From a bacterium (GTDB lineage: Bacteria; Bacteroidota; Bacteroidia; NS11-12g; UBA955): DNA of 64,000 nt. Below are positions 5,437 to 28,743 of the stretch, piece by piece. Position 1 is the stretch's first letter; each line of letters begins with the position of its first letter. The position numbers and the translations under genes were made by a program. Location: contig JAQSCZ010000125.1 in assembly GCA_029945665.1 (NCBI GenBank), positions 67-64,066 on the forward strand, in the 5' to 3' direction. The notes under the pieces are model-generated. The model worked only from the letters and a program-made list of their open reading frames with translations, made no database searches and was not told the DNA's origin.

Positions 5437-5736
5437 GGTTGGCAAAAAGAACTCATCATTTAATTTTTAAATAAATTATTTTTAAGCGCGCAAGCTTATC
5501 ATAACTCGAATAACAATTTCCACATCTTTCATAGACAAACAAAACCTTTCGTTCTGAAGAAATGCATCCGATTGAATGGGCTCATTTTTTCAACCAATAT
5601 TCGTGTTAGTCTTCAATTTATCTTGTATTTTTACAAAATTATATTGATAAATAATCTGCGCATAAATACTATTTTCAAACAATACATACGGCATTACTTT
5701 TAATTATTTTAACACTATACTACCAAAACAAAACCC

Positions 5737-6666
5737 ATGCAACTAATTACCAATTGCCCTGTTTGTAACGCTACAACGCTCAGTTCTTTTATTACAACAA
5801 CAGCACAAATGCATGCGAATAAAGCCTTGTTTAATTTTGACCAATGTGCAAATTGCAAACTCGTTTTCTTAAACCCCAGAGTGCCTATAGAAGAGCTAAA
5901 AAATTACTATACTTCATATTACTTGCCTTATAGAGGAGCAAAAGCTTGGGGTAAGTTTGAAAAATTGGTGGAGAACAGTCAAAGACAATTAGATTTAAAA
6001 AGAGTGAATCGTGTAAAAGCTGAATATGCCATGGTCTCAGATGCTCTAATTCTAGACGTGGGTTGTGGTAAACCCAGTTTTTTAAAAGCATGTAAGCAAA
6101 CGCTAAATTGCAGAACCCTGGGTATCGACTTCACTGACGAGGGTTGGCATAATCAATCAACCGATTTCGATGGGCTCGATTTAAAAGTAGCAGAGATAAA
6201 AGATTTGTCAAGTAACTTGCAACCAGATGTCATTACCATGTGGCATTATTTAGAACATGATTATACACCTTTTGAAAATCTTAGTTTTCTAAAAACCATT
6301 GCAAAACCTTCTACTAAACTTATTATCGAAATACCCAATTTCAACTCAGAAAGCAGACGGAAATATGGCAAGCATTGGGCAGGATGGCATACACCACGCC
6401 ATACGTCATTGTTCTCGCCCCATAATATTGAATTACTACTTAATAAAAGTGGCTGGAAAGTTACCAAATTACTCACCTATGGAACCATGGATCCCTATTT
6501 GCTTTATTGGATGAGCGAGATGGAAATAAAAGGCATTCAGTGGGATAAAAATATGGAAAGTGAATTTTGGAAATTTCTTCTAGGAAAGCTCCTATTCATA
6601 CCAAAGCAATTGATGGAGAAACAATCGTCTCTTGGCATTATGACAGTTATTGCAACACCGCAATAA
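5737..6666 (+). CDS. Class I SAM-dependent methyltransferase with N-terminal Cys4 zinc-ribbon
   Basis: 309 aa. CPVC...CANC ribbon, then SAM motif I 'ILDVGCGKPSF' and 'VITMWHYLEH'. Confidence 0.75.
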   Translation: MQLITNCPVCNATTLSSFITTTAQMHANKALFNFDQCANCKLVFLNPRVPIEELKNYYTSYYLPYRGAKAWGKFEKLVENSQRQLDLKRVNRVKAEYAMVSDALILDVGCGKPSFLKACKQTLNCRTLGIDFTDEGWHNQSTDFDGLDLKVAEIKDLSSNLQPDVITMWHYLEHDYTPFENLSFLKTIAKPSTKLIIEIPNFNSESRRKYGKHWAGWHTPRHTSLFSPHNIELLLNKSGWKVTKLLTYGTMDPYLLYWMSEMEIKGIQWDKNMESEFWKFLLGKLLFIPKQLMEKQSSLGIMTVIATPQ

Positions 6667-6672
6667 CACGCT

Positions 6673-7374
6673 TTAAAAATTCAAAAGATTTTTACCTTCC
6701 CAAGTCCCAGTTGATTTGTATGGTTGAAATCTTGCAAATAGCTCTTCTTTATACCAATTGTTTTTTCGAGTTCTTCTAATGGCTTCTTGATGTTGCTTGC
6801 TTTTATAAGCAAACTGCTTCACTGACTCAAAATCTTTCCATAAACTAAAAGTCGCCATTTGAACAATTGGAACTTCACCTACTCCTTTGGTATAAATCAA
6901 TCCTGCGTTCCCTTCCAAGGCTTCCTCTGATGTTGGCACATAATTCCAAAATCGCAAGAGCCAATTCCACTTAATAGTAGCTCTTGTAATAATGGCAATT
7001 GGGGCACTAGGATCCAAATCGGCTCCTTTCTCAAAAGGATTTTTACCAATCCATGCGCCACTTGCTGAAATGCTTTTCATATAAAGTGTAAATAACTCTT
7101 CAGTATGTAAAGCATATTGCTTTATCAAATCTGAACCGGTGAAAAATTCTTGTGCAGCGTTTTCAGATTCCCAAACCTGAAGAAGGCAATAAATAGACCA
7201 GTCAGGCAAAGGATTAAACCCTCTTCCTTTTCCACTACCCATCAATCGATAAAATGTCAGACCTTTTACATCTGCTAAATCTTTTTTGGCAAACTGCATC
7301 ATTTTAAATCCCCATACCTTATTGCTTAAAGTTGCAAACTTAAAAAAAGAAAGTGTTGTGATTTGTTGACTCAT
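6673..7374 (-). CDS. CrtA-like protein (spheroidene-monooxygenase / carotenoid 2-hydroxylase family), putative
   Basis: 233 aa. The N-terminal pattern 'LSFFKF..L..KVWGF..M......L.....GL.FY.LMGSG.G.GF.P.PDW..Y..L.VW' matches my memory of the CrtA family. It lies in the same strand array as the rhodopsin and crtY-blh. Confidence 0.5.
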   Translation of the reverse strand: MSQQITTLSFFKFATLSNKVWGFKMMQFAKKDLADVKGLTFYRLMGSGKGRGFNPLPDWSIYCLLQVWESENAAQEFFTGSDLIKQYALHTEELFTLYMKSISASGAWIGKNPFEKGADLDPSAPIAIITRATIKWNWLLRFWNYVPTSEEALEGNAGLIYTKGVGEVPIVQMATFSLWKDFESVKQFAYKSKQHQEAIRRTRKNNWYKEELFARFQPYKSTGTWEGKNLLNF

Positions 7375-7613
7375 ATTTTAAGGGATCTAATTTTATCTTT
7401 CAGAGAATACCTGCTGGCGGAAATCCTTTAGATTATCTAATAACACCAAATAGCTTCAGTTGTTTTTCGATATTTGTAAATGTAAGACATTATAAGCAGA
7501 ATGAATAAATACATAAAATAAAATCATTCCATACGACCACTACCCTATTGTTTATTCGAAAATTTAAGAACTCCATGATTGCTTATGGCATTTCAATAAA
7601 AAAATAGCATTGA

Positions 7614-9629
7614 TTACGATCGGTGAAACATTGCATAGAATTGATGCATTTTTAAAACATGGGGGATACTTAAACAAGATAAAACTATAAAAAAAAGACC
7701 CGCTGCCTGCTGACCTGCAAAAAACAAAGCGTACAAAATAATCATTGCACCTCCGATGCTAAATGGCAACGACTTTTTCCACAAAGTTGATGACCGTTCA
7801 TTTAACCCTGTTGAAAGGTGACGCCAACCATGCATACTGTGTTGGCCAACAAAATAAATACCGAACGAAATAAGCAAAGGCAACATGCTTGAAAGCAATA
7901 AATAGATTAATGTTAAAAGCATGTATTTTGATTTATTTAAAACGGATAACAAGATGCCCAATCCAAGTGTTAGAATTTGAATAAATAGTATTTGCCCCTC
8001 AGATATTTTTTTAAGAACAATGGCAATTTGCAAGTTTGGGATTTGTTTTAAAATATCTGATAATTCTACAAAATGAAAACTTAGTATCGTCATTAAAACC
8101 GTAAATCCCCAAAAAAACGATGACAAGCCTTGGATTAAATTCCATTCCTTAAAATCAGCCTGACCAAAATGCCACATGGAATAGGCCATAAAAATCAGCA
8201 AGGCAACGTCTGGGAATAAATACCAAATGAATCCCAAAAGCACGCCTTTCAATACATAATTTAACATAAAATAAAAAAGTTGCTTATGGTTTTTTACTTT
8301 CCGTGACGTTAAGTGATCCAACGCACCATGAGCAAGACCCACGGTCAAAAAACCCACAACCAAAATGCTTCCAGCGATGTATTCAAAATTTAAAACCGAG
8401 AGAAAAACCGCTAAAATTGTAAATAAAAAAGGGTAAAACAATAATGGCAAACGAATACATCTTTGAAGGACATCTTTTACCACAGCTTTAATGAAAATTC
8501 GCTTTGGTAATTTTGAAAAAATAACTATTTCTTTTGTAATGCTCGTTTTTTCGCGAAGAAAACTTAAAACCTTTATTAAGGCCACTTTCTTAAACAAGGT
8601 TTCGAAAATTATTTTCCCATATTCAGGTTTATCTGTTAAAATTTTAAGCAACAAACGGTCATAAAATCCAAATCTTTTTTTTCTGATAATTCTTTTCTGC
8701 AATTGATTATTTTTAATGGCCTCCATTTGTACAATCGCATCTTCGGCCATCGCATGAAAAGCATAACCTGTTGTGCATTTTAGCATATCTGCTTTGACAC
8801 CCATATTTACCCAATGTGAACCATAGTGATCTTTTTCCATGTTGGCACTTGACATTGGAATTACCCCTTGTTCAGTTTCAATAATTTCAAATGAAACGCC
8901 TAGTGCTTTCGAATACTCATCTAATATCAATTCTGCTTCTGATTTTAATAATTTTTGAGTACCAAATCTGGTTAGTTCTATCAATGCTGTATCTTCGGTA
9001 AAGGGCAGTGTATATACAAATTGGGTAAAATTATTTTGAGGGACATTAAAATCCATCATCACCATTGTAGAAGTGTCAAATGTTTTTTTGTCTGTTTTAA
9101 TTTTCCAACCAAAAAAGGACTGATTTAAATGAGTTTGATTGTTTTTTGGCTTTAAAAATACCGGTGGCCGACTATCGAAAACATACTTAGCGCGTAGTGT
9201 TTCATTTTCTAATTTTAATTCAAATTGCTCAGCCTTTACATCAGGAATTCCAGTAAAGAAGGTTGCAAAATTTGTCACCTGACAATTCAAAAGACAACTT
9301 TTAGCCGCGTGGTATAAATCGATTCCTTTCACATGGAAATAATGCAATGGATTAATTGGCTGTTTGGCAATGCCGCTTATTTCTATATTCGACCAGCTAT
9401 AACTTACAAGTGTATTTAATTTTAGTTTAAAAAGTTCTTGTTCTGTCGCCCAAAAACAAAAAGTCCTATCGTTGGTCGTTTTACCATCTGGCTCAATAAT
9501 AGCAATGGTCTTACCATTTAGTAAACCATTTTCGTGCAACATTAAAATCAACAAGCAATTCGCTGCACCTAATCCAATGAATAGGAAATCAAATTTCAAA
9601 GTTGAATTATATTTTTCGGTTGATTGCAT
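7614..9629 (-). CDS. crtY-blh: Fusion protein: lycopene beta-cyclase (CrtY-type, N-terminal) + Brp/Blh beta-carotene 15,15'-dioxygenase (C-terminal)
   Basis: One uninterrupted ORF. The track start at 9653 is TTG; the ATG at 9629 is preferred. The N-terminal half has the FAD fold 'FDFLFIGLGAANC', 'DRTFCFW' and 'FVYTLPF..LIE.TRF'. The C-terminal roughly 280 aa is polytopic, with Blh-type His motifs 'HGALDH', 'WHFGQAD' and 'QHSMHGWRH'. Confidence 0.85.
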   Translation of the reverse strand: MQSTEKYNSTLKFDFLFIGLGAANCLLILMLHENGLLNGKTIAIIEPDGKTTNDRTFCFWATEQELFKLKLNTLVSYSWSNIEISGIAKQPINPLHYFHVKGIDLYHAAKSCLLNCQVTNFATFFTGIPDVKAEQFELKLENETLRAKYVFDSRPPVFLKPKNNQTHLNQSFFGWKIKTDKKTFDTSTMVMMDFNVPQNNFTQFVYTLPFTEDTALIELTRFGTQKLLKSEAELILDEYSKALGVSFEIIETEQGVIPMSSANMEKDHYGSHWVNMGVKADMLKCTTGYAFHAMAEDAIVQMEAIKNNQLQKRIIRKKRFGFYDRLLLKILTDKPEYGKIIFETLFKKVALIKVLSFLREKTSITKEIVIFSKLPKRIFIKAVVKDVLQRCIRLPLLFYPFLFTILAVFLSVLNFEYIAGSILVVGFLTVGLAHGALDHLTSRKVKNHKQLFYFMLNYVLKGVLLGFIWYLFPDVALLIFMAYSMWHFGQADFKEWNLIQGLSSFFWGFTVLMTILSFHFVELSDILKQIPNLQIAIVLKKISEGQILFIQILTLGLGILLSVLNKSKYMLLTLIYLLLSSMLPLLISFGIYFVGQHSMHGWRHLSTGLNERSSTLWKKSLPFSIGGAMIILYALFFAGQQAAGLFFIVLSCLSIPHVLKMHQFYAMFHRS

Positions 9630-9709
9630 TTTTAAGGTTATAAATGAATACAATAAAAAAGGGATGGCACCTTTTAAAGTTTGCCACCCCTATCATATTT
9701 TTAAATAAA

Positions 9710-10429
9710 TTAATCTTGAGAATTTCTGCTCAAAGCATAAATTACTAAACCGAATCCGATTTTGTTTACAGCATCGGCAATGTTGTATACAATATCCATA
9801 GCATGACTTGCAGCTGCAGAATCACTTACCAATTGGATACCGAATAATCCACCTGGTGTTCCTAAAATATAACCCAATGGATAAATAGCCCATCCTACTA
9901 ATACGAACCAAGCAAGAATGCGCGTTGCCTTTGCAACTTGTGGTCCCGCTGTTTGTGCTAATTTAGCAACATCACCAAACCAAACAAGGTAAGCAATGTA
10001 GAAGTAAGCCGCTCCAGAAATCACACCCCATAACACACTGCTATCTCTGTCGATTGTTTCGCCAAAATAACCAGTTACTAACATCACCAAAGATGCAAAA
10101 ATCAATTTCCATAACAATCCAATTTTAGCACCTGCTTTTTTGGTTATTAAGTAAAATTCTACGCACATCAAAGGCACTGTTAAGATCCAATCAACGTAAC
10201 GGAAAAAAGTTGGAGAATCACCTGTTTCTAAATTGTAGCCCCTCATGTAATAATAGTGAACCGCTGCAATGAATGTAATTAATCCCGATACAAGAACTGA
10301 TGTTCTCCATTTAGCGGAGGTATTATTCAGTTCAAAAAAGAAAAATACCGAAGCAGCCATCATGGCCATGGTGCCGATGAAGAATGTAAAAGCAACGTAA
10401 TTGTCGCTTGCGATTTTTAAATGTTCCAT
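9710..10429 (-). CDS. Proteorhodopsin-family light-driven proton pump (DTE motif, Met at spectral-tuning site)
   Basis: 239 aa, 7 TM. Helix C 'RYVDWILTVPLMCVEFY' gives D80/T84/E91, equivalent to PR D97/T101/E108. H58 corresponds to PR H75. Helix G 'NIADAVNKIGFG' carries D219 and the Schiff-base K223. Confidence 0.95.
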   Translation of the reverse strand: MEHLKIASDNYVAFTFFIGTMAMMAASVFFFFELNNTSAKWRTSVLVSGLITFIAAVHYYYMRGYNLETGDSPTFFRYVDWILTVPLMCVEFYLITKKAGAKIGLLWKLIFASLVMLVTGYFGETIDRDSSVLWGVISGAAYFYIAYLVWFGDVAKLAQTAGPQVAKATRILAWFVLVGWAIYPLGYILGTPGGLFGIQLVSDSAAASHAMDIVYNIADAVNKIGFGLVIYALSRNSQD

Positions 10430-10677
10430 TTTTTTTTAAATTTGATTTAAGTTTGTAAATATTTTATTCAATTTAAGTTAAACAAAATATTATTTAAAAA
10501 TGTTTTCATTTGTTTAAGTATAAAACAAAGGCACTAGCTGATAAAATTCTATACTCCTAACTTGTCTTTTAAAATACAAAGCAGTGTATAGTAAATGTTT
10601 AAATAATTTACCACAAAGACAAATCCTCTGTCAACTAGAACAAATTAACCATGGATTTAGGTGATGAAAAAGAATTT

Positions 10678-11424
10678 TTACGCCTTGGTTATAAACTGTT
10701 TACGAATTTTATTGGGCATCTTCACCTGAACCTCAGATCCTTTTGCAAGAAAAACAGAAATGGGTTTAACATTTTGAATAAAGGGCGTAAAAGCCTCCCC
10801 ATATAATTTCTCGATATCGCAAATAAGCGCAGATTTTATAACCGGAAAAACTTGCCAACGCGGATGTGCAAGACTATATTCTATTGAAGTCGTTTCATTC
10901 AACTTGTTGTAACCATAATAATGCTCAAAAATAAATTCTTCTTCAGAACCAGGTTCAATATATTGGCCATTTGGATTAGCACTGACCGTCATTTTACACC
11001 AATCCGTATCTTTTGTTTTCCATTGATAGGACACATCTAAAATTTGACTATTATGAGTAATCGCATGACTCATTTTAGCCGTGCTATAATGCTCATTGTA
11101 TAATAAGTTTGCGATACTTGACACCAAGAAGCTTGGAACTATTTCAGAGATAAACCCTACACCTCGCTTCCATTCCCTTCCATCAAAATATTTGATATAG
11201 TATCGCAAGTTAACTTCTTCGAAATTTACAAAGCCTGGCCATTTTACCCCCATTACTTGTGTATTGTTAAATAGGAATCCTACAACGCTTACAATGGCCT
11301 TACCTTTCCATAAATCCAATTGGGTATAAGGAGGCAAGTGCGGCAACAAGATTAATGGATCAACTTCGAAATTAAACATTGCGAGGTATTCCCATTTGGC
11401 CCTTAAAAATATATGCTTACCCAA
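10678..11424 (-). CDS. DUF2071 (YqjF-like) family protein
   Basis: Conserved N-terminus 'AKWEYLAMFNFEVDP'. The track start at 11469 is TTG and an ATG lies at 11463; both overlap the upstream gene by 38-44 nt. A TTG at 11424 sits 1 nt after the upstream stop and keeps the conserved N-terminus, so I prefer it. The start is uncertain. Confidence 0.7.
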   Translation of the reverse strand: MGKHIFLRAKWEYLAMFNFEVDPLILLPHLPPYTQLDLWKGKAIVSVVGFLFNNTQVMGVKWPGFVNFEEVNLRYYIKYFDGREWKRGVGFISEIVPSFLVSSIANLLYNEHYSTAKMSHAITHNSQILDVSYQWKTKDTDWCKMTVSANPNGQYIEPGSEEEFIFEHYYGYNKLNETTSIEYSLAHPRWQVFPVIKSALICDIEKLYGEAFTPFIQNVKPISVFLAKGSEVQVKMPNKIRKQFITKA

Positions 11425-11425
11425 G

Positions 11426-12061
11426 TTACTTGATAATTTGTGTTGGCTTCCCAGGTTTGGCATATTCAAAGCGATCTATAAAATCGGTATTATAATAAGC
11501 ATCAATCCCATTGCTGCAGATCGAATTTGCTTTCTCTAAATGAATAAATCCATCATCCGAGACAATGTCTTGATGTATAATTATACCAGTAATCTTTCCA
11601 ATAACTAAAAAAGTTCTATTTAACTGAATTGGAATTATTTCTTCAAGCGACAATGCATATTTAATATCGCTCTCTCTAACAAATGGCGCAATACAATTCA
11701 ATTCAAACTCAGGTGTTAATCCAACTTCTTCAAACTCACTAATTTCTTTTGAATATTTTGCACTGGTTTGATGGGCTTGTTGAACAAACTGCGATTGAAT
11801 GTGATTGATCGTGTAAACACCAGTGGACTGAATATTCTCTAGGGTGTGTGCCGCTGATTCTATCGGCCTGTTGATGTAACCGATTAAAGGCGGATTTGAG
11901 CCAAGGTGAACAATGCTGCTAAAAATACCGAGGTTATTTTGACCATTGGCGTTGGTTGTTCCAATTAGACTTACAGACTTAAATCCTGTTAAACTATTTA
12001 TAAAATTTGCGCGGTAGAAACGCTCCCACCTATCCATGTCCTCGGTATTATAAAATGCCAT
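11426..12061 (-). CDS. Flavin reductase-like (FMN-binding split-barrel) protein
   Basis: 211 aa. 'FKSVSLIGTTNANGQNNLGIFSSIVHLGSNPPLIG' is typical of Flavin_Reduct domains. ATG start. Confidence 0.8.
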   Translation of the reverse strand: MAFYNTEDMDRWERFYRANFINSLTGFKSVSLIGTTNANGQNNLGIFSSIVHLGSNPPLIGYINRPIESAAHTLENIQSTGVYTINHIQSQFVQQAHQTSAKYSKEISEFEEVGLTPEFELNCIAPFVRESDIKYALSLEEIIPIQLNRTFLVIGKITGIIIHQDIVSDDGFIHLEKANSICSNGIDAYYNTDFIDRFEYAKPGKPTQIIK

Positions 12062-12114
12062 ACTGTTATATTAATAATTCAAACATTACTAAGCGCAAAT
12101 TGTTTAAGATTTCT

Positions 12115-13590
12115 ATGAATGAAGCTGTATTGATTTTTCCGCATCAGTTGTTTCAACAACATCCTGCTTTGCAAAAAAATAGGCCGGTGTTTTTGGTAGA
12201 AGAATGGCTTTTCTTTCGACAATACCATTTTCATACACATAAACTCATACTGCACAGAGCAAGTATGAAATTTTATGAAGCTTATTTAAACGAACAAAAT
12301 TATACTGTTAACTACATCGATTCTAATGATGAAAAAAATGATATTACCGTATTAATTTCATTTCTGAACGAAAATAAAATTACAAAAATTCATTTGGCAG
12401 ATGTTGTTGATGATTGGTTATCGCAGCGTATCCACAATGCGTGCTTAAAATATGGCATTGCTATCAGTATTAGTGGTTCGCCATCTTTTTTAAATACCAT
12501 GGAAGCAAACAATAGGTATTTTAATAACAAGCAGACCTACTTTCAAACCGATTTTTATATTTATCAGAGAAAGGAACTTCAATTGTTATTAGAAGCCAAT
12601 GGTAAACCAGTTGGCGGCAAATGGACCTTCGATTCAGAAAACAGAATGAAGTTTCCAAAAAAAGAAACAGCGCCCTCAGTTCATTTTCCACCAACCAATC
12701 CATATTTAACAGAAGCTGTTGAATATGTAGACCAATATTTTCCCTCTAATTATGGAGATGCACATGCTCCTCATTTTTTCGCAACTACCTTTATAGAAGC
12801 AGAAAACTGTTTGAATGATTTTCTAAAAAATAGATTTGAAAAATTTGGTATTTATGAGGATGCCATAGTTGCCAATGAAAACATTTTGCACCATTCTGTT
12901 CTTTCACCTATGTTGAACATAGGAATATTAACGCCATTACAAATACTAGAGGCCGTATTAATGCATGCTAGCATTAACAAGACACCACTCAATTCGCTAG
13001 AAGGCTTTATTCGACAAATTGTTGGTTGGCGAGAATTTATAAGAATCGTATACGAACGCGAAGGAAAAAAACAAAGAACCACTAATTACTTTAAATTCAA
13101 ACGAAAGATTCCGCGTAGTTTTTGGACAGGCACAACTGGCATAGCTCCTATAGATATTACAATTCAGAAAACACTTAAGACCGGATATTGCCATCACATT
13201 GAACGTCTCATGGTACTAGGTAATTTCATGTTACTATGTGAGTTCGACCCTGACGAAGTTCATCGCTGGTTTATGGAATTATTTATTGATGCCTATGACT
13301 GGGTGATGGTGCCTAATGTATATGGCATGACACAGTTTGCAGATGGCGGATTAATGACCACAAAACCCTATATAAGCGGCAGCAATTATTTAATGAAAAT
13401 GAGTAATTATGAAAAAGGTGAATGGCAGCCAATTTGGGATGGATTATTCTGGCGCTTTATGCATGAGCACCGCAGCTTTTTTTTAAAAAATCCAAGACTT
13501 GGTATGTTGGTTCACACATTCGACAAAATGAGTGACGAAAAAAGAAATTGCCATTTGATCAATGCAGAAAACTACCTAAACACTCTGTAA
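12115..13590 (+). CDS. Cryptochrome/photolyase-family protein, COG3046 / PhrB-CryB-related branch
   Basis: Start re-set to the ATG at 12115 (MNEAVLIFPHQLF), because the track start at 12007 overlaps the divergent flavin reductase. Shows 'GWREFIR', 'TGYCHHIERLMVLGNF', 'DAYDWVMVPNVYGMTQFADGG' and 'KPYISGSNY'. Confidence 0.85.
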   Translation: MNEAVLIFPHQLFQQHPALQKNRPVFLVEEWLFFRQYHFHTHKLILHRASMKFYEAYLNEQNYTVNYIDSNDEKNDITVLISFLNENKITKIHLADVVDDWLSQRIHNACLKYGIAISISGSPSFLNTMEANNRYFNNKQTYFQTDFYIYQRKELQLLLEANGKPVGGKWTFDSENRMKFPKKETAPSVHFPPTNPYLTEAVEYVDQYFPSNYGDAHAPHFFATTFIEAENCLNDFLKNRFEKFGIYEDAIVANENILHHSVLSPMLNIGILTPLQILEAVLMHASINKTPLNSLEGFIRQIVGWREFIRIVYEREGKKQRTTNYFKFKRKIPRSFWTGTTGIAPIDITIQKTLKTGYCHHIERLMVLGNFMLLCEFDPDEVHRWFMELFIDAYDWVMVPNVYGMTQFADGGLMTTKPYISGSNYLMKMSNYEKGEWQPIWDGLFWRFMHEHRSFFLKNPRLGMLVHTFDKMSDEKRNCHLINAENYLNTL

Positions 13591-13624
13591 AATACAATTC
13601 TAAATAATTGAATATTCACCTTAA

Positions 13625-13783
13625 ATGAAACCTATAAAAAAAGAAAACTTAGCTTCAAAAATTTGCATAGTATGCCAAAGACCGTTTACTTGGAGAAAGA
13701 AATGGGAAAAGGTATGGCATGAGGTGAAATATTGTAGTGACAAGTGCCGAATAAGCAAAAAAAAGATTGAGACTATTTCATGA
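13625..13783 (+). CDS. DUF2256-type small zinc-ribbon protein (52 aa), missed by the ORF track
   Basis: My translation is MKPIKKENLASKICIVCQRPFTWRKKWEKVWHEVKYCSDKCRISKKKIETIS. It has the CxxC...W..V.YCS..C signature. Its TGA overlaps the ATG of the next photolyase gene (ATGA at 13780-13783). Confidence 0.8.
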   Translation: MKPIKKENLASKICIVCQRPFTWRKKWEKVWHEVKYCSDKCRISKKKIETIS

Positions 13784-15282
13784 CGCAATCGGTTAATATC
13801 ATCTGGTTCAAACGCGACCTTCGACTTGCGGATCACAAGCCCCTTCAATTGGCCATTGCAGAGGGCTTGCCTACTGTTTTGTTGTATTGTTTCGAACCAT
13901 CGCTGCTAAATCATGGTGATAGTTCCGAAAGACATTGGCGATTTATTTATCAATCCCTTCAACAAATGCAAAAGGTTTTAAGAACTTACAATTTATCCAT
14001 TCAAATTGCATACTCAGAGGTCATCGACGCATTACAAACAATACAAAATCACTGCAACATAAAAACTATTTTTTCGCACCAAGAAATAGGCAATCAAATA
14101 AGTTTCAAACGAGACAAAGCTGTTAAATTATTTTGCAATAACAATAACATCCAATGGATTGAATCGACTACCAATGGCATAACAAGAGGATTAAAAGGCA
14201 GAAAAGACTTTAGTAAGCATTGGCATGCAGTAATGAACGAACCTCTATTTGAAATTGATTTAAACAAGTTGCAAATATTTAACATGGGTTCAATACTAAG
14301 CAATGTTAGTGAAAATGAAATTTTTTACAATAGCATCACTTCAAAACATTCTTATATACAGCCAGGCGGGGAACAATATGCCCATGAATATATGAAGAGT
14401 TTTTTAAGCCAAAGGGTCGCTAATTATAGCAAGCATATTAGCAAACCTATGGAAAGTAGAAAAAGTTGTAGCCGACTTTCGCCATACCTTGCTTGGGGCA
14501 ACTTAAGCATCAAACAAATTTATCAAACCTCTTTAAAATCATTTGTACAAAATAAAGATAAATTCAACATCAATTTTTTTATTAATAGGCTGCATTGGCA
14601 TTGTCATTTTATTCAGAAGTTCGAAAGCGACTGCTCCATTGAATATAAAAATCTGAACAATGGTTTTGATGAGATTAGAAATAGTAAAAATGAAGCTTAT
14701 ATTACAGCTTGGGAAAAAGGGGAAACAGGTTACCCTTTGGTTGATGCCTGTATGAAGTGCGTAATAGAAACGGGTTATTTAAATTTCAGAATGCGAAGTA
14801 TGCTTGTTACTTTTCTTACCCATCAACTTTGGCAACCCTGGCAGGCGGGAGCTCACCATTTAGCCAAACAATTTTTAGATTATGAGCCAGGCATTCATTA
14901 TCCGCAATTTCAAATGCAGGCAGGCACCATGGGCGTAAATACTATTCGCACTTACAATCCCATAAAACAATCAAAAGACCACGATCCACAAGGTGTATTT
15001 ATTAAAAAATGGATTCCTGCATTGCAACATATTCCAGAAAACATAATTCACGAACCGTGGGTTATGTCAGAAATGGAACAAAAGATGTATAAGTGCATCA
15101 TTGGTTCAGATTATGCCGCACCAATTATTGATTCTAAAACAGCCGCTGCTTTTGCCAGGGTCCACTTATGGGAAACAAAAAAATCAAAAAATGTATTAAA
15201 AAACAATGCAAAAATTTTAGCCATTCATACCAACCGAAAAAATAAAGAAGATGATAACACTTTACAGATTAATTTTAGTTAA
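13780..15282 (+). CDS. Cryptochrome/photolyase-family flavoprotein, canonical N-to-C topology, divergent subclass
   Basis: 500 aa. N-terminal 'IIWFKRDLRLADHKPL'; FAD domain 'SRLSPYLAWGNLS' and 'TGYPLVDACM..ETGYLNFRMRSM'. The usual D.D..SN..WQW block reads 'LDYEPGIHYPQFQMQAG'. Confidence 0.85.
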   Translation: MTQSVNIIWFKRDLRLADHKPLQLAIAEGLPTVLLYCFEPSLLNHGDSSERHWRFIYQSLQQMQKVLRTYNLSIQIAYSEVIDALQTIQNHCNIKTIFSHQEIGNQISFKRDKAVKLFCNNNNIQWIESTTNGITRGLKGRKDFSKHWHAVMNEPLFEIDLNKLQIFNMGSILSNVSENEIFYNSITSKHSYIQPGGEQYAHEYMKSFLSQRVANYSKHISKPMESRKSCSRLSPYLAWGNLSIKQIYQTSLKSFVQNKDKFNINFFINRLHWHCHFIQKFESDCSIEYKNLNNGFDEIRNSKNEAYITAWEKGETGYPLVDACMKCVIETGYLNFRMRSMLVTFLTHQLWQPWQAGAHHLAKQFLDYEPGIHYPQFQMQAGTMGVNTIRTYNPIKQSKDHDPQGVFIKKWIPALQHIPENIIHEPWVMSEMEQKMYKCIIGSDYAAPIIDSKTAAAFARVHLWETKKSKNVLKNNAKILAIHTNRKNKEDDNTLQINFS

Positions 15283-15379
15283 GACTTGCTTAACCTTTTA
15301 GATTAAAATGTATAAATAGTTAAGTAGTTTAAAGCGAAGCAATTTTTGACAACTAAAAAAGAATAAAAAAATAAAAACA

Positions 15380-15661
15380 ATGACCCCAGATAATTTAAGT
15401 GAAATAGATATTGACCGCATTATTGAAATGGCTTGGGAAGACAGAACGACTTTCGAGGCCATAGAAAAGCAATTTGGGTTGAAACAAGAAGATGTAATCA
15501 AACTGATGCGCAAAACGCTCAAGCGCTCTAGTTTTAAATTGTGGCGCGAGCGCACTAAAGGCCGCAACACCAAACACGAGGCGCTAAGAGACAATGCCAT
15601 TACACGTTTTAAATGCAAACTCCAGCGCACCATTACTAATAATAAAATAAGTAAGCGCTAA
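15380..15661 (+). CDS. TIGR03643/DUF2805-like small protein (photolyase-associated)
   Basis: 93 aa. The 'IDRIIEMAWEDRTTFEAIEKQFGL...VIKLMR..L....FK.WRER' pattern matches my memory of this family. Its stop lies 1 nt before the next photolyase gene. Confidence 0.7.
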   Translation: MTPDNLSEIDIDRIIEMAWEDRTTFEAIEKQFGLKQEDVIKLMRKTLKRSSFKLWRERTKGRNTKHEALRDNAITRFKCKLQRTITNNKISKR

Positions 15662-15662
15662 T

Positions 15663-16817
15663 ATGACTTTAGATTTAATTACCGAAAAAAATCCAAGTTC
15701 AAACTATTCCTTTCCAACCAATCAAAAGTTTATTGCGGAAAGGATTAATCAAATAGACCCCATTCTATATGGCAAGACCAGAAATTTTATCGACGGCTCG
15801 GTTACCTATTTATCACCCTATATTTCCAGAGGCGTTATTAGTGGAAAACAGATTCTGGAAAATATTTTGCAAAAAGGATATCGACCAAATGAGATAGAAA
15901 AATTCATACAAGAACTTGCATGGCGAGAATATTTTCAGCGTATTTGGCAAAATATACAGGATGGCATTTGGGATGATATAAAACAAGCACAACCCGATGT
16001 AAAGCATACTCAAATGGTTGAATCGGTAATAAATGCTAACACAGGCGTATCAGCCATTGACGATGCTATTGAACAATTATACGCAAATGGATACATGCAT
16101 AACCACTTGCGCATGTATACAGCATCGATGGTATGCAATATGGCCAAAGCGCATTGGTTACAGCCCTCTCAATGGATGTATTACCATTTGCTGGATGGCG
16201 ACATAGCGAGCAACAATTGCAGTTGGCAATGGGTAGCCGCAGCATTTGCATCCAAGAAATATTATTTCAACCAAGAAAATATCAATAAATATACGTTTAG
16301 CACCCAAAAAAATAGCTACTTGGACAGGCCTTACGAGGAAATTATGGCGATGGAAGTGCCAGAACCATTGCGTGCGAAAAGTAATTTGAGTTTACAAACT
16401 ACATTGCCATATACTGAATTACCTAGTATCAACCCATCAATTCCAACACTCATATACAACAGTTATAATTTGGATATTGAGTGGCACAAGGATGAGCAGG
16501 TGAATAGAATTTTGTTGTTAGAACCTTCGCACTTTAAAAAATATCCTGTGAGCAAAAAAGTTCTTGCGTTCATCATTGATCTTGCAAAAAATATAGAGGG
16601 GATAAAACTTTTCTGTGGTGAAATTAATGAAATTATTGATTCAAATGCCCAATCAAATATTGCCATTTCAAACATCATATCAAAAGAACACCCATCAAGT
16701 AATCATTATCCTGGAATAAAGGAAAGCAGAGACTGGATGTTCCCAGAAATCACAGGAAATTATCCTTCTTTTTTTGCGTATTGGAAAAAATGCGCTAAGC
16801 AACTTGGAATAAAATAG
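15663..16817 (+). CDS. Inverted-topology photolyase (NewPHL-like): FAD/catalytic domain first, small alpha/beta-like domain last
   Basis: 384 aa. It starts directly with helical-domain motifs 'SVTYLSPYISRGVIS', 'ELAWREYF', 'NGYMHNHLRMY' and 'LLDGDIASNNCSWQWVA'. There is no N-terminal WFRRDLR domain. The C-terminal roughly 125 aa ('RILLLEPSHFKKYPVSKKVLAFIIDL...YPSFFAYWKK') resembles the photolyase alpha/beta domain and linker. Confidence 0.75.
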   Translation: MTLDLITEKNPSSNYSFPTNQKFIAERINQIDPILYGKTRNFIDGSVTYLSPYISRGVISGKQILENILQKGYRPNEIEKFIQELAWREYFQRIWQNIQDGIWDDIKQAQPDVKHTQMVESVINANTGVSAIDDAIEQLYANGYMHNHLRMYTASMVCNMAKAHWLQPSQWMYYHLLDGDIASNNCSWQWVAAAFASKKYYFNQENINKYTFSTQKNSYLDRPYEEIMAMEVPEPLRAKSNLSLQTTLPYTELPSINPSIPTLIYNSYNLDIEWHKDEQVNRILLLEPSHFKKYPVSKKVLAFIIDLAKNIEGIKLFCGEINEIIDSNAQSNIAISNIISKEHPSSNHYPGIKESRDWMFPEITGNYPSFFAYWKKCAKQLGIK

Positions 16818-17035: not shown

Positions 17036-17920
17036 TTAGTAGTCGGAAATGCTACTATTATTATATAAATTATGGATATGCAAAATTAAATAGCCAAAGA
17101 GAACAGCACCCAAAATCAAAGCATTGTTAACCACACCTTCCACAGAAAAAGACAACTTTATTAAAATTGTAGAGATGACAAAGCCAGAGTTCCGAATAAT
17201 CTTATGAAATTTATCAGAGTAAAAAAAAGAGAACAAAAGCAATATCACATCTATGACAATTAAAACCATGAAGAAATCTTCGAAAAAGATATTATTAATA
17301 TTTTTAAAAGAGGTTATATTGTTCCAATGGTCTTGCACGGCGGAGATTAACCAAATACCGAAAGAGTAAAAGGCAAGGACTACTAAAAAAGGGATCAACA
17401 CGGTGGCAATGCTTTTTTTAAGTTTTATAAACTTAGTTGTTTTAAATTTTTCCCCTAGCGATTTAGGAGTTTCTTCGACCCCTTGCTTCTTTATTTTCTT
17501 ATAAAACAATTGAATTAAAAAAAACAAAATTAAGGTTGTTAATACATCGTAGGTAAACTGGAGATCATTTTCTAACCTAAACCAATTGGTGGTCATTTCG
17601 ATATTGCCAATATCTTTAAAAATCCGCCTGATAACAATCAATGTTATAATTTCGTATTGCTTGCCTATGTATATTGAAATGGACCGAGGCAAAAAAAATA
17701 CAAGTAAGAACACTTCATAAACTAGAATAAAAGAAAATGGCGTATACACTGCCGAAATAGGGCTTTTTGTAAGTTTTGAAGAAATATGTAATACATCTTG
17801 ACTTACTAAAAAAATAACAAGTAAATGCACAATGAAACTCACAATAGCTATAGAAATAATGACATGTTCTATGCGTTCTCTGAATTCTTCAGACAAGAAT
17901 TTATCAAAAACATTTTTCAT
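17036..17920 (-). CDS. Polytopic membrane protein, function unknown
   Basis: 294-aa ORF with ATG start and about 7 hydrophobic segments. I recognise no family. Confidence 0.55.
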   Translation of the reverse strand: MKNVFDKFLSEEFRERIEHVIISIAIVSFIVHLLVIFLVSQDVLHISSKLTKSPISAVYTPFSFILVYEVFLLVFFLPRSISIYIGKQYEIITLIVIRRIFKDIGNIEMTTNWFRLENDLQFTYDVLTTLILFFLIQLFYKKIKKQGVEETPKSLGEKFKTTKFIKLKKSIATVLIPFLVVLAFYSFGIWLISAVQDHWNNITSFKNINNIFFEDFFMVLIVIDVILLLFSFFYSDKFHKIIRNSGFVISTILIKLSFSVEGVVNNALILGAVLFGYLILHIHNLYNNSSISDY

Positions 17921-19023: not shown

Positions 19024-21321
19024 TTAGTAATTCAGGTTAATACCAACCCCAAAGCCCATATCACTGTCGTAATGTGTCCGAATGCCTATATTTTTTCTAA
19101 TAATATACCGTAAGTCAAACATGTATTCCTTATCTGTATTAATCATAAATCCCGCTCTAATTCTTTTAGAAATGGGAATATCTTCACGCATTAGTTGAAA
19201 ACGAAAGTCGCCATTTTGAAAAACCTCTGCTTGAAAAACGACTAGCATAGGCAAGGTAGCATCAAAACCTGCGGTAAAAAGGCTACGATTATCCTTTGAA
19301 TTAAGCATTCCAAATACATTATGCTCTTGAAAATTTATTTCACCAATTTGCTGTCTATACCGCCAGTCAAAACCAACAAAAGGCATAAACCATTGCATTT
19401 TACCAAGGTATCTTCCAAAATGCGTTTCAGTTTCATAGCCCATTGTATTCATGTAGCCGAAACGCCATTCAGTGCTCAGACTCCAACGGGTATTTTGTAA
19501 CATTGCCATGCCGTCATTTCCATTGGTTGCAAAATCATTTGATGCCATAAAATGAATCTGATTGCTTTCTCTCTGCAATTTTTTATACGCCCACTTTTTA
19601 TTAGGGAGATATGGATTAACTGCTTGATTCTCGTATGAAAAAACACGGTTCATTCCTGCCATCATGTGATACAATATGTGGCAATGAAAAAACCAATCAC
19701 CTTCTAAATTGGCATTAAATTCTATGGTATCTGTTTCCATTGGCATTATATCTAAAACGTTCTTTAAAGGCGCGAACGCGCCTTGACCATTTAAAATTCG
19801 AAAATCATGACCATGCAAATGCATAGGGTGCCGCATCATCGACCCGTTGTATAAAATGATCCTAATATTTTCTCCCTTTTTAATTAGAATTTTATCAACT
19901 TCAGAAAGCACTTTATTGTCCATACTCCAGGTATACCTGTTCATATTGCCAGACAATTCAAATCTCAATTCTTTAAGTTGTGAAGCCTCAGGAAGAGTTG
20001 TGGAAGTTGTTGCTTTTAACATTGCATAATTAAGCGTAACAATGTCGGAAAGTTCGTTACTTTTGTAATTATCCTCTGTCATTTTCATCGCCTTCATCGC
20101 TTTGTCTTTCTTTTTAATTGCACCTGTTATTTCTGGATACATAACGACATTCATATCCATTTTTTGTAAAGACATATTCATCCCCATATCATCCATTGAA
20201 CCATCCATATTCATCATACCATTCATCATTTTCATGCCTTCAAAATATTTTAGTTTGGGCAAGGGGCTTGTTAATTGTTTAACGCCACTGCCCAAATACA
20301 AGGAGCTCGATCGAATGCGGTCTTCCGAGGTTGCCAAAAATTCATAGGCTGTATTTTCTGCCGGAATACTAACAATAACATCGTAAGTTTCAGAAACACC
20401 AATAATGAGTCTATCAACTTCTATAGGTTCGACATCATTCCCATCGTTAGCCACTACAGTCATTTTCCCTCCAGCATACGAAAGCCAAAAATAAGTGGAA
20501 GCGCCACCATTCGAAATTCGCAATCGAATCTTTTCGCCTGATTTGAAAATTGGCGATGAAGGTGTAAGCGCTTTAATTTGACTTTCATTACGCCCATTAA
20601 TCAACAACTTTTCGTAGTAAACATCGCTCACATCCATGGCCAACATACGTTTCCATTCATTGGTAATTTTAGTTTTGAAATGCCCTGCTTTTATAGCTTC
20701 TGTGTAGCTTTGTGTTGTTCCTTTTTTTATGGCGAACCAGTCTGAAGCATTATGCAACATGCGGTGTACATTTTCCGGTTTTAAATTTGTCCATTCACTT
20801 AATATCACTGGAATCTGAGGAATATCGTCTATGCCATTTCTAAAGGCTGGATCTTCCCTCTTCTTTAGTAAAATCAATGACCCATACATCCCTAATTGCT
20901 CTTGCAACCCCGAATGTGAATGGTACCAATGGGTACCACTTTGTTTAATAGCAAATCTATAAATCATTGTTTTATTAGGCGCTATAGGCAATTGCGTCAA
21001 AAAGGGAACACCATCTTCTTTATTTGGAAGATACAAGCCATGCCAATGCAAAGATGTTCCTTCATTCAATAAATTATGAACAACTATTTCCGCTGTATCA
21101 CCTTCAGTAAATGTAAGTGTTGGCATAGGAATTTGTCCATTTACAGCAATGGCTCTCTTTTCTTTTCCACCAAAACTCACCAAAGAATCTTTGATATAGA
21201 GCTCGTAATGAACAATTCTACCAGGACTTATCTGAAAAGATTTTGAAGACAAGCATGATGAAGTTAACAGCGCTATACCAAACAGAATAATTTTTATTTT
21301 AATTATAATTTTTATACTCAT
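19024..21321 (-). CDS. Multicopper oxidase lipoprotein (CopA/PcoA-like) with Met-rich insert and about 200-aa CopB-like C-terminal extension
   Basis: 765 aa with a lipobox (LLTSSC). Cu motifs 'LHWHGLY', 'WYHSHSG', 'HPMHLHGH' and 'HCHILYHMMAGM'. Met-rich stretch MKMMNGMMNMDGSMDDMGMNM. The tail after the last Cu motif has an alternating beta-strand pattern and ends ...GINLNY. Confidence 0.9.
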   Translation of the reverse strand: MSIKIIIKIKIILFGIALLTSSCLSSKSFQISPGRIVHYELYIKDSLVSFGGKEKRAIAVNGQIPMPTLTFTEGDTAEIVVHNLLNEGTSLHWHGLYLPNKEDGVPFLTQLPIAPNKTMIYRFAIKQSGTHWYHSHSGLQEQLGMYGSLILLKKREDPAFRNGIDDIPQIPVILSEWTNLKPENVHRMLHNASDWFAIKKGTTQSYTEAIKAGHFKTKITNEWKRMLAMDVSDVYYEKLLINGRNESQIKALTPSSPIFKSGEKIRLRISNGGASTYFWLSYAGGKMTVVANDGNDVEPIEVDRLIIGVSETYDVIVSIPAENTAYEFLATSEDRIRSSSLYLGSGVKQLTSPLPKLKYFEGMKMMNGMMNMDGSMDDMGMNMSLQKMDMNVVMYPEITGAIKKKDKAMKAMKMTEDNYKSNELSDIVTLNYAMLKATTSTTLPEASQLKELRFELSGNMNRYTWSMDNKVLSEVDKILIKKGENIRIILYNGSMMRHPMHLHGHDFRILNGQGAFAPLKNVLDIMPMETDTIEFNANLEGDWFFHCHILYHMMAGMNRVFSYENQAVNPYLPNKKWAYKKLQRESNQIHFMASNDFATNGNDGMAMLQNTRWSLSTEWRFGYMNTMGYETETHFGRYLGKMQWFMPFVGFDWRYRQQIGEINFQEHNVFGMLNSKDNRSLFTAGFDATLPMLVVFQAEVFQNGDFRFQLMREDIPISKRIRAGFMINTDKEYMFDLRYIIRKNIGIRTHYDSDMGFGVGINLNY

Positions 21322-21324
21322 TAT

Positions 21325-23811: not shown

Positions 23812-23835
23812 TTTAATTTTATATTTTTAAATTAT

Positions 23836-23861
23836 AAGGATAGCCTTTTACAGCTATCCTT
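23836..23861. terminator. Stem-loop AAGGATAGC-8nt-GCTATCCTT with flanking T/A runs, between the DUF3347 gene and copA
   Basis: 9-bp perfect stem located 7 nt downstream of the 23868 stop and 25 nt upstream of the copA start. Confidence 0.5.
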
Positions 23862-23867
23862 TTTTAA

Positions 23868-24731
23868 TTATTTAATGGTCTCTACTGTTTTACCACAAGT
23901 AAGCATTTGAGCACCGAAATACGGATTTTTAATTGCGTTTTCTTTACTCAACCAATTGGCGCCTTTGCCATCATTTGCCATTGGACAATGCTGATAATAC
24001 ACGGATTGTTCATATTTTGCAACCTTCATCAGGGTGTAAATATTGTCAGATAACCGTATAAAATGTTCTCTTTGATGTGATGCATCCTTCGTATTGGCCA
24101 TGTGCTCGGCATCTTCTTGCAAATCAGTCAATACTTTCATCCAAACTAGGTGTACATCCATAGAAAGCTTATCCATCTTTACGGCCTTGATAGCCGACAA
24201 AAGAGCTGTCGATTTTGCGGATGCCAATGCACCATCTGTTTTCACCAGCGCATCTTTAACTTCAAAATACTTATCAAATATGTTATTTAACTGATTTGAT
24301 TCCTCAATTTCCAAAGATGATTTTTGAATTGCTTGATTGGCTGTATCCATTTTCATTTTGGGCGCTTCTGTTTTAGCAATTGTCTTTTTTGTTCTATCGT
24401 ATTGACAGCAATTTGGAAGATTTGAGTAGGCTAAATCTGGCGACAAAAAGCTATCGCTGTCATAGCCTGCCAAAGCTATACGCTTTAAAATTTCGGCAGA
24501 ATTGGTTTGTTTAGTATCGAAAGTAAGGGTAGCCATTTTGGTATCTATATTCCATTCCACAAGTGACACTTTTTTTACGTTACCCGCCTTTTCTATGGCC
24601 TTTTTGCACATTCCGCAATTTCCATAGATTTTAATTGTATCTGTTTTGGCATTTTTAATTTGTGCATTGCACGCTGTGATTGATAGCATAATTGTTAATG
24701 CTATCAAAATTTTTGATGTTATTTTTTTCAT
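23868..24731 (-). CDS. Lipoprotein with HMA-like CxxC domain and DUF3347-like C-terminal domain (metal-handling accessory)
   Basis: 287 aa with a lipobox (SITAC). 'YGNCGMCKKAIEKA' is HMA-like. The C-terminal 'FDKYFEVKDALV...HCPMANDGKGANWLS' matches my memory of DUF3347. Confidence 0.7.
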   Translation of the reverse strand: MKKITSKILIALTIMLSITACNAQIKNAKTDTIKIYGNCGMCKKAIEKAGNVKKVSLVEWNIDTKMATLTFDTKQTNSAEILKRIALAGYDSDSFLSPDLAYSNLPNCCQYDRTKKTIAKTEAPKMKMDTANQAIQKSSLEIEESNQLNNIFDKYFEVKDALVKTDGALASAKSTALLSAIKAVKMDKLSMDVHLVWMKVLTDLQEDAEHMANTKDASHQREHFIRLSDNIYTLMKVAKYEQSVYYQHCPMANDGKGANWLSKENAIKNPYFGAQMLTCGKTVETIK

Positions 24732-28715: not shown

Positions 28716-28743
28716 TGTTTGATACCAATTTTATGTTTATTTG

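Follow-up and report, generated by a model that had tools for sequence, protein, structure and literature searches.

A composite 11-kb gene set of a Bacteroidota genome in which a rare palindrome precedes both a proteorhodopsin cassette and a photolyase cluster

Eleven adjacent genes are found at positions 5737-16817 of a 64,000-nt stretch from a freshwater Bacteroidota genome (lineage UBA955; GenBank assembly GCA_029945665.1, contig JAQSCZ010000125.1, positions 67 to 64,066 of the forward strand). The whole stretch is referred to as the window. The 11-kb span is a composite. It consists of a photolyase/flavoprotein cluster, a cassette of two genes (a rhodopsin and a CrtY-Blh fusion protein) and a pair of genes for a methyltransferase and a CrtA-like protein. 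The clustering of these genes exceeds chance. A rare palindrome before both the rhodopsin cassette and the photolyase cluster is suggestive of their joint activation, though no proof of it. We consider it rather probable that the set is not a single inherited unit and that one regulator, acting at both palindromes, co-controls three transcription units.

Bacteroidota are a major group of aquatic photoheterotrophs, and we know of no identified regulator that switches on a proteorhodopsin in this phylum. The palindrome that is common to the rhodopsin and photolyase promoters provides a concrete handle toward such a regulator, as DNA bait or as a site to mutate.

Gene Neighborhoods in Related Genomes

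All window proteins were mapped onto two sets of 80 loci from species-representative genomes, one anchored on relatives of the rhodopsin and the other on relatives of the COG3046 photolyase-family protein. Related loci and assemblies carry L-numbers (L004 to L279), and the compared stretches have at most about 21 kb each. The source organisms are nearly all represented by metagenome-assembled genomes (MAGs) from freshwater, soil or wastewater, and most are Bacteroidota (Chitinophagaceae, Cyclobacteriaceae, Saprospiraceae and others). We term a locus well-flanked if the anchor gene has 5 kb or more on both sides (36 for COG3046, 33 for the rhodopsin).

The 36 well-flanked COG3046 loci contain DUF2805 (TIGR03643) in 27 cases, the flavin reductase and DUF2256 in 22 cases each, the short photolyase NewPHL in 19, DUF2071 in 8 and the NewCRY-like gene in 7. 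In 8 of them, the rhodopsin is no more than 10 kb away from the COG3046 gene. In the rhodopsin-anchored loci, CrtY-Blh is found 26 times, while every photolyase-side gene is found three times or fewer. DUF2805 is located immediately upstream of NewPHL in 22 of 39 cases, and at least 36 of 74 loci have DUF2256 no more than 250 nt from the COG3046 gene. Dozens of species-level genomes, from Bacteroidota, Ignavibacteria and Pyrinomonadaceae (Acidobacteriota), contain photolyase-side genes in a common cluster.

A preliminary description, made from the sequence of the window, had listed DUF2071, DUF2256, the TIGR03643-like gene and the flavin reductase as four members without a defined role in any light pathway. 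By synteny, DUF2256, DUF2805 and the flavin reductase clearly belong with the photolyase cluster and not with the rhodopsin, which we count as new, and DUF2071 tracks the photolyase cluster more weakly. This places three orphan families (DUF2256, TIGR03643/DUF2805 and a flavin reductase subfamily), and weakly also DUF2071, in photolyase biology. Of the terms looked for, those for gene context and the names TIGR03643, DUF2805 and Bacteroidetes are absent from PMC7736829, and those for gene clusters or neighbors are absent from PMC8476157.

The photolyase clusters of relatives often contain additional genes. One codes for a short-chain dehydrogenase/reductase (SDR, 36 loci), which is transcribed divergently from COG3046 in those cases where the flavin reductase is not. 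Other recurrent genes code for a second flavin reductase of 160 aa, a NAD-binding/DUF2867 protein, DoxX_2 and fasciclin (examples for this group, including the SDR, are L099 12838-13554, L143 4850-5332 and L149 5513-6958, among others).

The Rhodopsin Cassette as an Indel

The closest relative is L081, with about 72-88% amino acid identity. It has the nine other genes of the span in the same order and orientation and lacks the rhodopsin and CrtY-Blh. Window positions 5727-7381 align to L081 6704-8358, and window positions 10673-16813 align to L081 8560-14634. The unmatched window stretch in between (7382-10672, 3.3 kb) contains exactly two genes, the rhodopsin and CrtY-Blh; L081 has 201 bp there, a net difference of about 3.1 kb. 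The cassette behaves as a compact pair of genes, present or absent between close relatives. We count this clean indel as new. The expectation that the span is one unit or island is not borne out, as the cassette is an indel relative to a genome that keeps all other nine genes. The nine genes are colinear in L081, and the photolyase side recurs in many genomes with an order that varies widely.

The rhodopsin is 96% identical to many freshwater Bacteroidota rhodopsins; the other span genes reach at most 88% identity to any relative. The next-closest relatives, as judged by COG3046, have rhodopsins that are just 74% identical and are encoded at other positions. A 96%-identical rhodopsin elsewhere, against 74% identity in the next-closest relatives, favors acquisition of the cassette in this lineage. 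Besides the rhodopsin and CrtY-Blh, a recipient would need only a supply of lycopene for retinal-based phototrophy.

It is highly improbable that the entire 11-kb block is a horizontally mobile genomic island that moved as a unit. The boundaries of the homology to L081, which extends from 10 bp before the methyltransferase gene to the stop codon of NewPHL while the genes outside differ, would fit such an island. However, no integrase, transposase, real tRNA or flanking direct repeat was found, the G+C content of the span equals that of its surroundings (about 35% across the window, with no compositional break at the span), the gene order of the cluster varies widely among relatives, and it is the rhodopsin cassette alone that acts as a mobile part. 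A mobile nature of the "fitness island" of the preliminary description finds no confirmation: neither with the cassette nor with the whole span was an integrase, a tRNA or a pair of att repeats found, and there is no shift in G+C content. The only direct or inverted repeats found at the junctions of the cassette are short, A+T-rich and attributable to chance. ARAGORN reported a tRNA-Pyl at 2714-2807 (minus strand), but this is inside the ORF (open reading frame) of a TonB-dependent receptor and is almost certainly a false positive.

A Palindrome Before the Rhodopsin and the Photolyase Cluster

A palindrome is found in two intergenic regions that had been suggested for motif discovery, 10430-10677 (upstream of the rhodopsin) and 12062-12114 (the gap between the divergent flavin reductase and COG3046 genes). 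When the divergent gap is aligned for the window and 10 relatives, the half-sites AAACATT and AAATTGTTT are invariant, with a free spacer of 9-10 nt. Written as hexamers, the palindrome is TAAACA-N15/16-TGTTTA (N15 in the divergent gap). In this gap, it is 18 nt from the ATG of the flavin reductase and 8 nt from that of the COG3046 gene. The strict form AAACATT-N11-14-TTGTTT has two matches in the 64-kb window, against 0.16 expected, and these are at 12081-12105 and 10480-10505.

The palindrome on the rhodopsin side is orthologous to a site in L081 that is 15 nt upstream of the CrtA-like gene. Twenty-two of 26 positions are identical, the spacer included, and the sequence before the CrtA-like gene of L081 can be aligned, palindrome included, to the sequence before the window's rhodopsin. 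This orthology implies that the motif is older than the cassette at this place and that the cassette separates it from the CrtA-like gene. The cassette would thus sit between the CrtA-like gene and its former upstream region, and the rhodopsin would now be behind what is, in L081, the palindrome on the CrtA side. In other genomes, the dyad is found 30-95 nt upstream of the rhodopsin gene, including those of Cytophagales rhodopsins that are just 57% identical (L108, L132, L138).

For an enrichment count, AAACA-N14-16-TGTTT was searched within 160 nt upstream of genes over all loci and compared to shuffled sequences. Matches precede 17 of 90 rhodopsin genes (shuffle mean 0.9), 13 of 79 COG3046 genes (0.24) and 7 of 40 flavin reductase genes (0.13), but only 13 of the 1581 other ORFs (0.8%), so that the enrichment for rhodopsin and COG3046 genes is about 20-fold. 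Support from a scan of species genomes for the exact motif is weak: among the 120 matches listed, most are chance matches in unrelated phyla, and three adjoin cluster genes, two between the flavin reductase and DUF2256-DUF2805 (L176, L279) and one before the COG3046 gene (L179). We count the palindrome among the new findings.

It might be argued that the adjacency is neutral, the cassette having landed in a permissive intergenic site beside an unrelated repair cluster and the palindrome being a widespread A+T-rich promoter feature of Bacteroidota, without shared regulation. We consider this unlikely. The genome has only 35% G+C, L081 as the closest relative does without the cassette, most genomes keep the rhodopsin and the photolyase cluster apart, and each of the two window sites, taken alone, is no more frequent than by chance if one mismatch is tolerated, all of which is what neutrality would predict. 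A common promoter feature would, however, not be expected before 16-19% of the rhodopsin and COG3046 genes and only 0.8% of other ORFs, nor with half-sites that are kept while the spacers are free to vary. In addition, the rhodopsin is within 10 kb of COG3046 in 8 of 36 loci, in several arrangements, where chance would give about 0.6% (for one position in a genome of a few Mb). Rhodopsin and photolyase genes have thus been linked repeatedly, with arrangements that differ between loci.

Several points weigh against co-control by one regulator. The strict motif is upstream of just about one fifth of the rhodopsin or COG3046 genes. It was not found before DUF2805/NewPHL in the window, and more distant relatives, whose operons run co-directionally from DUF2071 to COG3046, lack it upstream of these operons. 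With one mismatch allowed, either window site alone is at chance frequency, so that the significance of the motif rests on its conservation and position. The majority of rhodopsin loci have no photolyase gene nearby. The compared loci were picked by homology and are phylogenetically related, and rhodopsin cassettes may carry their own upstream regions along in transfer. Finally, we infer light control of the cassette and the photolyase cluster from their gene content. Of the single regulon that had been proposed, the part that stands is the conserved palindrome before the rhodopsin promoter and the flavin reductase/COG3046 promoters; DUF2805/NewPHL is not preceded by it.

In the arrangement that we favor, with one regulator for both sites, the palindromes would be read by a dimeric DNA-binding protein or by a dedicated sigma factor on a symmetric promoter. 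Three transcription units would respond: the rhodopsin, CrtY-Blh and the CrtA-like gene; the flavin reductase and DUF2071; and COG3046, DUF2256 and the NewCRY-like gene, possibly extending into DUF2805 and NewPHL.

The known SOS operators of Bacteroidetes, bound by a non-canonical LexA, were considered and rejected, since TAAACA-N15/16-TGTTTA differs from the published motifs, which are GGA-N5-TCC or CTAA-N5-TTAG (PMC8565304). A scan for sigma-70 promoters gave 57 matches with 55 expected and is uninformative for this phylum.

The motif could be a symmetric, bidirectional promoter of the extracytoplasmic function (ECF) sigma type, with AAACA being -35-like and TGTTT being -10-like, rather than the operator of a dimeric repressor or activator. 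We regard this as rather doubtful. The spacing AAC-N16-TGT resembles ECF promoters, Bacteroidota do not use sigma-70 consensus promoters, which fits the uninformative scan, and the motif is 8-18 nt from both divergent start codons and must therefore overlap the core promoters. Yet the dyad symmetry is also kept before the rhodopsin, where transcription is one-directional, and no gene for a sigma or anti-sigma factor was found in the window near the span.

Returning to a dimeric regulator, it is tempting to speculate on an undescribed light/UV regulon of Bacteroidota, in which such a protein on TAAACA-N15/16-TGTTTA couples rhodopsin phototrophy (opsin, retinal synthesis and carotenoid tailoring) to photorepair. 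In its boldest form, the cluster would encode its own regulator, DUF2805 and/or DUF2256, with the NewCRY-like or COG3046 protein as the photosensor. We consider this reading unlikely. The absence of a transcription factor that had been noted for the span holds for recognized domains, as none of the eleven genes matches a Pfam transcription-factor domain; the small basic DUF2805 and the zinc-ribbon protein DUF2256 remain as candidates. There is a parallel in Halobacterium, where the genes for retinal synthesis share the control of the bop regulon. Opsin transcription is controlled there by regulators that include Bat, the small zinc-finger protein Brz and the small basic protein Brb (PMC3184054). 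The resemblance to DUF2256 and DUF2805 as candidate regulators is one of analogy only (small zinc-finger and basic proteins), without homology.

Retinal Photosystem and Carotenoid Genes

The rhodopsin has the D-T-E motif of proton pumps at the positions of bacteriorhodopsin residues 85/89/96, a Met at the color-tuning site (green type) and the Schiff-base lysine; RYVDWILTVPLMCVE and AVNKIG are present in the translation. From these residues, it is predicted to be a green-type DTE proteorhodopsin, a light-driven proton pump. Its identity to the rhodopsins of 80 freshwater Bacteroidota genomes is 87-96%. The closest solved structure is that of NM-R1 from Nonlabens marinus (9JOV/9JOU, E=8.6e-89). 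This proteorhodopsin was solved with bound myxol or zeaxanthin, and a carotenoid-binding fenestration (Gly at xanthorhodopsin position 156) was reported for almost all Bacteroidota proteorhodopsins (bioRxiv 10.1101/2024.11.08.622755).

The adjacent gene codes for a fusion of CrtY and Blh. The Blh part (residues 430-667) passes TIGR03753 with 122.7 bits at a cut-off of 95.25. The CrtY part is well over the cut-off for Pfam Lycopene_cycl (146 bits) but far under those of the NCBIfam equivalogs CrtY and CrtL. The likely start is the ATG at 9630, which results in a protein of 671 aa, and the same 671-aa call was made in an independent assembly (L161). As judged from its domains, the protein would convert lycopene to beta-carotene and further to retinal in one polypeptide. 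Thus, module B of the span would be a two-gene retinal photosystem, with a green-type proteorhodopsin, a hairpin and a CrtY-Blh protein that turns lycopene into retinal. In about 50 of 80 rhodopsin loci, one tblastn alignment beside the rhodopsin covers both domains. No paper describing a crtY-blh fusion was found in literature searches aimed at such a fusion, and we count its prevalence in freshwater Bacteroidota as new.

Between the two genes is a hairpin with a 10-bp G+C-rich stem. Its minimum free energy is -19.8 kcal/mol (z=-3.2), and 0 of 200 shuffled sequences are as stable. It is probably an attenuating terminator. A hairpin with a U-tract after the rhodopsin stop codon suggests high expression of the opsin and, by read-through, lower expression of CrtY-Blh. 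A general scan for terminators performed at chance level (7 found, 8.6 expected) and missed this hairpin because of its loop length.

In marine Flavobacteriia (Dokdonia, Polaribacter, Nonlabens), genes for rhodopsin and photolyases/cryptochromes coexist (PMC3595038, citing Gonzalez et al. 2008). As in their proteorhodopsin-blh arrangement, the window has a green DTE rhodopsin with a Met at the tuning site and an adjoining blh, and several cryptochrome/photolyase genes are in the same genome. The window differs from marine Flavobacteriia in that blh is fused to crtY in one ORF, that the cassette is inside a photolyase cluster and that a common palindrome precedes the rhodopsin and photolyase promoters.

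The CrtA-like protein aligns with NF045923 over residues 4-228 (226 model positions). An annotation as spheroidene monooxygenase equivalog was rejected, because the score is below the cut-off of that model (Table 1). The protein is 86% identical in L081, and the methyltransferase gene adjoins the CrtA-like gene also in L081 (77% identity) and L059 (42%). Based on its domains, this pair (module C) is presumed to tailor carotenoids, the CrtA-like protein acting as oxygenase.

A few observations concern the rhodopsin loci of other genomes. Contigs with Bacteroidota-type proteorhodopsins of 88-94% identity are filed under MAGs of Methylotenera, Synechococcus, Bifidobacterium and Polynucleobacter (L004, L012, L020, L066), which probably reflects mis-binning or mislabelling and not transfer. 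The "DUF805 RNA" (RF03081), a cis-regulatory motif of Rfam, is found in the 5' leader of the proteorhodopsin gene in L049 (9919-9986) and L030 (9912-9981). Of 88 rhodopsin upstream regions, 47 carry its sequence signature, and wherever the palindrome is present as well, the signature is the downstream one of the two; the rhodopsin leader of the window lacks this RNA. A protein of the Crp/Fnr family (cNMP_binding) is encoded in seven loci, five of which are rhodopsin loci, and is absent from the span in the window. In two loci that were checked, the gene is directly upstream of the rhodopsin (L018 525-1121, L072 28-609). It is a possible alternative regulator at those loci.

Three Unusual Photolyase-Family Proteins

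(1) The COG3046 protein has full-length homology to the bacterial (6-4) photolyases PhrB (4DJA, E=1.6e-75) from Agrobacterium and CryB (3ZXS) from Rhodobacter, which represent the FeS-BCP and CryPro proteins; E-values for the two structures are 1e-73 to 1e-75. Alignment to 4DJA shows that the catalytic His-His pair is retained, and it also has conserved Trp and Tyr residues, which we take to be those of the active site and electron path of PhrB. Unlike PhrB and CryB, it has Pro at the positions of C350 and C454, and a 10-residue deletion removes the loop with C438/C441. Thus, all four [4Fe-4S] ligands are gone, and a cluster at that site is not possible. The loss of the iron-sulfur cysteines is seen in 82 of 82 collected COG3046 homologs. 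These sequences point to a coherent iron-sulfur-less clade of FeS-BCP/COG3046 relatives in Bacteroidota, Ignavibacteria and Acidobacteriota, in which the His-His pair is retained and which we consider as new.

(2) The 500-aa protein scores under every NCBIfam cut-off. In the active-site region, RLHWHCHF, NFRMR and QFQMQAG replace ELxWREF, HNRxRM and GWQW, with E to R and N to F exchanges relative to 1np7. These alternative motifs (RLHWHCHF/NFRMR/QxQMQxG) are kept in 18 homologs with identities down to 35%. The NewCRY (VcCry2-type) group lacks the equivalents of E274 and N341 (Emmerich et al., PMC7736829). By its missing catalytic residues, the protein fits the description of this group and is referred to as NewCRY-like. 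It is probably not a repair enzyme.

(3) In the NewPHL protein, residues 22-213 match photolyase positions of about 217-416. An alpha/beta antenna domain is missing, and about 170 aa follow as a C-terminal extension. The residues for repair of cyclobutane pyrimidine dimers (CPD) are kept (ELAWRE, MHNHLRM and SWQW in the alignment to 1TEZ). The C-terminus carries PSFF and not the GFF of the Z-domain motif of the class. NewPHL and SPL are the same class (PMC7736829, PMC8476157), and a Bacteroidetes subgroup "Ba" that lacks the cysteines has been described (PMC8476157).

From these residue comparisons, none of the three is predicted to be a canonical double-strand CPD photolyase. To our knowledge, repair activity has been shown only for relatives of NewPHL and FeS-BCP, in other organisms. 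The statement that three photolyase classes are encoded in the span holds in spirit: they are a relative of FeS-BCP that lacks the iron-sulfur ligands, a NewCRY-like protein in which the canonical repair residues are missing, and a NewPHL/SPL protein.

An adjacent pair of an FeS-BCP and a "FAD-domain-only" photolyase has been reported for Nitrospira from the Great Lakes (PMC9239080). Similarly, the COG3046 and NewPHL-type proteins share a cluster in the window. In contrast to the Nitrospira pair, however, the COG3046 protein lacks the four Fe-S ligands, and the cluster has DUF2256, DUF2805, the flavin reductase, DUF2071 and the NewCRY-like protein in addition. As in the NewPHL/SPL class, NewPHL is accompanied by a (6-4)-type photolyase, and a DASH cryptochrome is not encoded in the span.

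Accessory and Uncharacterized Genes

The photolyase side (module A) would comprise the FeS-less COG3046 protein paired with DUF2256, NewPHL translationally coupled to DUF2805, the NewCRY-like protein, the flavin reductase and DUF2071. The flavin reductase is close to PDB 3fge (E=1.3e-57). The start codon of DUF2071 (ATG 11463 or TTG 11469) is inside the 3' end of the flavin reductase gene, so that the two form an operon. No relative with a solved structure was found for DUF2071.

DUF2256 is a basic protein of 52 aa (pI 9.9) with a four-Cys zinc ribbon (CxxC-N17-CxxxC), and its stop codon overlaps the start of the NewCRY-like gene (ATGA). DUF2805 (93 aa) is also basic (pI 10.1), and only one base separates its stop codon from the start of NewPHL. 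Its AlphaFold (AF2) model consists of four helices with a pLDDT (predicted local distance difference test) of 69.5. Comparison to helix-turn-helix (HTH) families yielded weak matches to sigma region 4 (Sigma70_r4, E=0.066), resolvase and TrpR, and the best Foldseek match has E=2.8. The model has no significant PDB match (Foldseek), and the likeness to sigma region 4/HTH is not significant either. No literature was found on DUF2256 together with photolyase, or on TIGR03643.

Beyond NewPHL and convergent with it is a gene for a 294-aa membrane protein, which is a candidate for a twelfth member of the set. It has more than 7000 homologs; among the 120 matches listed, identities are 68-100% and all are unnamed. 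It is beside rhodopsin or photolyase genes in nine loci (L036, L039, L041, L059, L083, L108, L122, L132, L138). No Pfam match was found, and the AlphaFold model is unusable (pLDDT 46).

Layout of the Span and Its Surroundings

The features are listed in Table 1. All eleven ORFs are found with coordinates and strands as first listed. In L161, an independent Logan assembly, 10 of the 11 genes have the identical order and gene calls; the exception is the 52-aa DUF2256 gene, which was not called. As had been described, two sets of five genes diverge from a gap of 53 bp (12062-12114), one starting at 12061 on the minus strand and the other at 12115 on the plus strand. The previous family assignments are all correct, as judged from Pfam and NCBIfam profile scans of the translated window ORFs, and every family is a known one. 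These scans covered 52 ORFs, including all with at least 150 aa (eight ORFs of 84-149 aa were left out). The reported absence of crtE/B/I/Z was confirmed for these 52 ORFs, in none of which a domain of that type was found.

Table 1. Features of the span and their positions in the window
Feature	Position	Strand	Assignment or location
Methyltransf_23 S-adenosylmethionine-dependent methyltransferase, N-terminal Cys-rich segment	5737-6666	+	Pfam E=4e-19
CrtA-related carotenoid oxygenase (presumed)	6673-7374	-	NF045923 full-length, 231.5 bits versus 300-bit cut-off
CrtY-Blh fusion	7614-9630/9653	-	Lycopene_cycl 22-384, BCD 434-668, TIGR03753
Terminator-like hairpin (9660-9691) and U-tract (9654-9659)	9654-9691	-	between rhodopsin stop and CrtY-Blh start
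Proteorhodopsin (predicted)	9710-10429	-	Bac_rhodopsin PF01036 E=3.8e-42
Palindrome TAAACA-N16-TGTTT(T)	10479-10506		51 nt upstream of rhodopsin ATG
DUF2071 protein	10678-11469	-	Pfam E=1.1e-48
Flavin reductase-like split-barrel protein	11426-12061	-	PF01613 E=1.1e-13
Palindrome (C)AAACATT-N9-AAATTGTTTA	12080-12106		center of 53-bp divergent gap
COG3046/DPRP protein	12115-13590	+	PF04244 E=1.6e-54
DUF2256, 52 aa	13625-13783	+	PF10013 E=1.3e-21
NewCRY-like two-domain cryptochrome/photolyase-family protein, 500 aa	13780-15282	+	PF00875 and PF03441
TIGR03643/DUF2805, 93 aa	15380-15661	+	TIGR03643 123.3 versus 66.55 cut-off
NewPHL/SPL-type short photolyase, 384 aa	15663-16817	+	FAD_binding_7 at residues 81-207
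Candidate twelfth member, 294-aa multi-pass membrane protein, convergent with NewPHL	17036-17920	-	no Pfam family

Neither flank is light-related. The upstream flank codes for the TonB receptor, MntR and SulP, and the downstream flank for the unnamed membrane protein, a GNAT acetyltransferase and copper-resistance proteins. The copper-resistance block (19024-24731, minus strand) contains a multicopper oxidase, a copper P-type ATPase with HMA/HMBD domains and DUF3347. Beyond this block, 8.5 kb past the span, is a gene for a TspO/MBR tetrapyrrole-binding membrane protein (25383-25862, minus strand), which is not preceded by the palindrome. Genes for alkylation repair follow at 28107-29625 (minus strand), where an AlkB-type 2-oxoglutarate/Fe(II) oxygenase adjoins an Ada-like AraC/methyltransferase regulator. 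A GAF histidine kinase (29919-31121) and a DinB_2 protein are encoded nearby.

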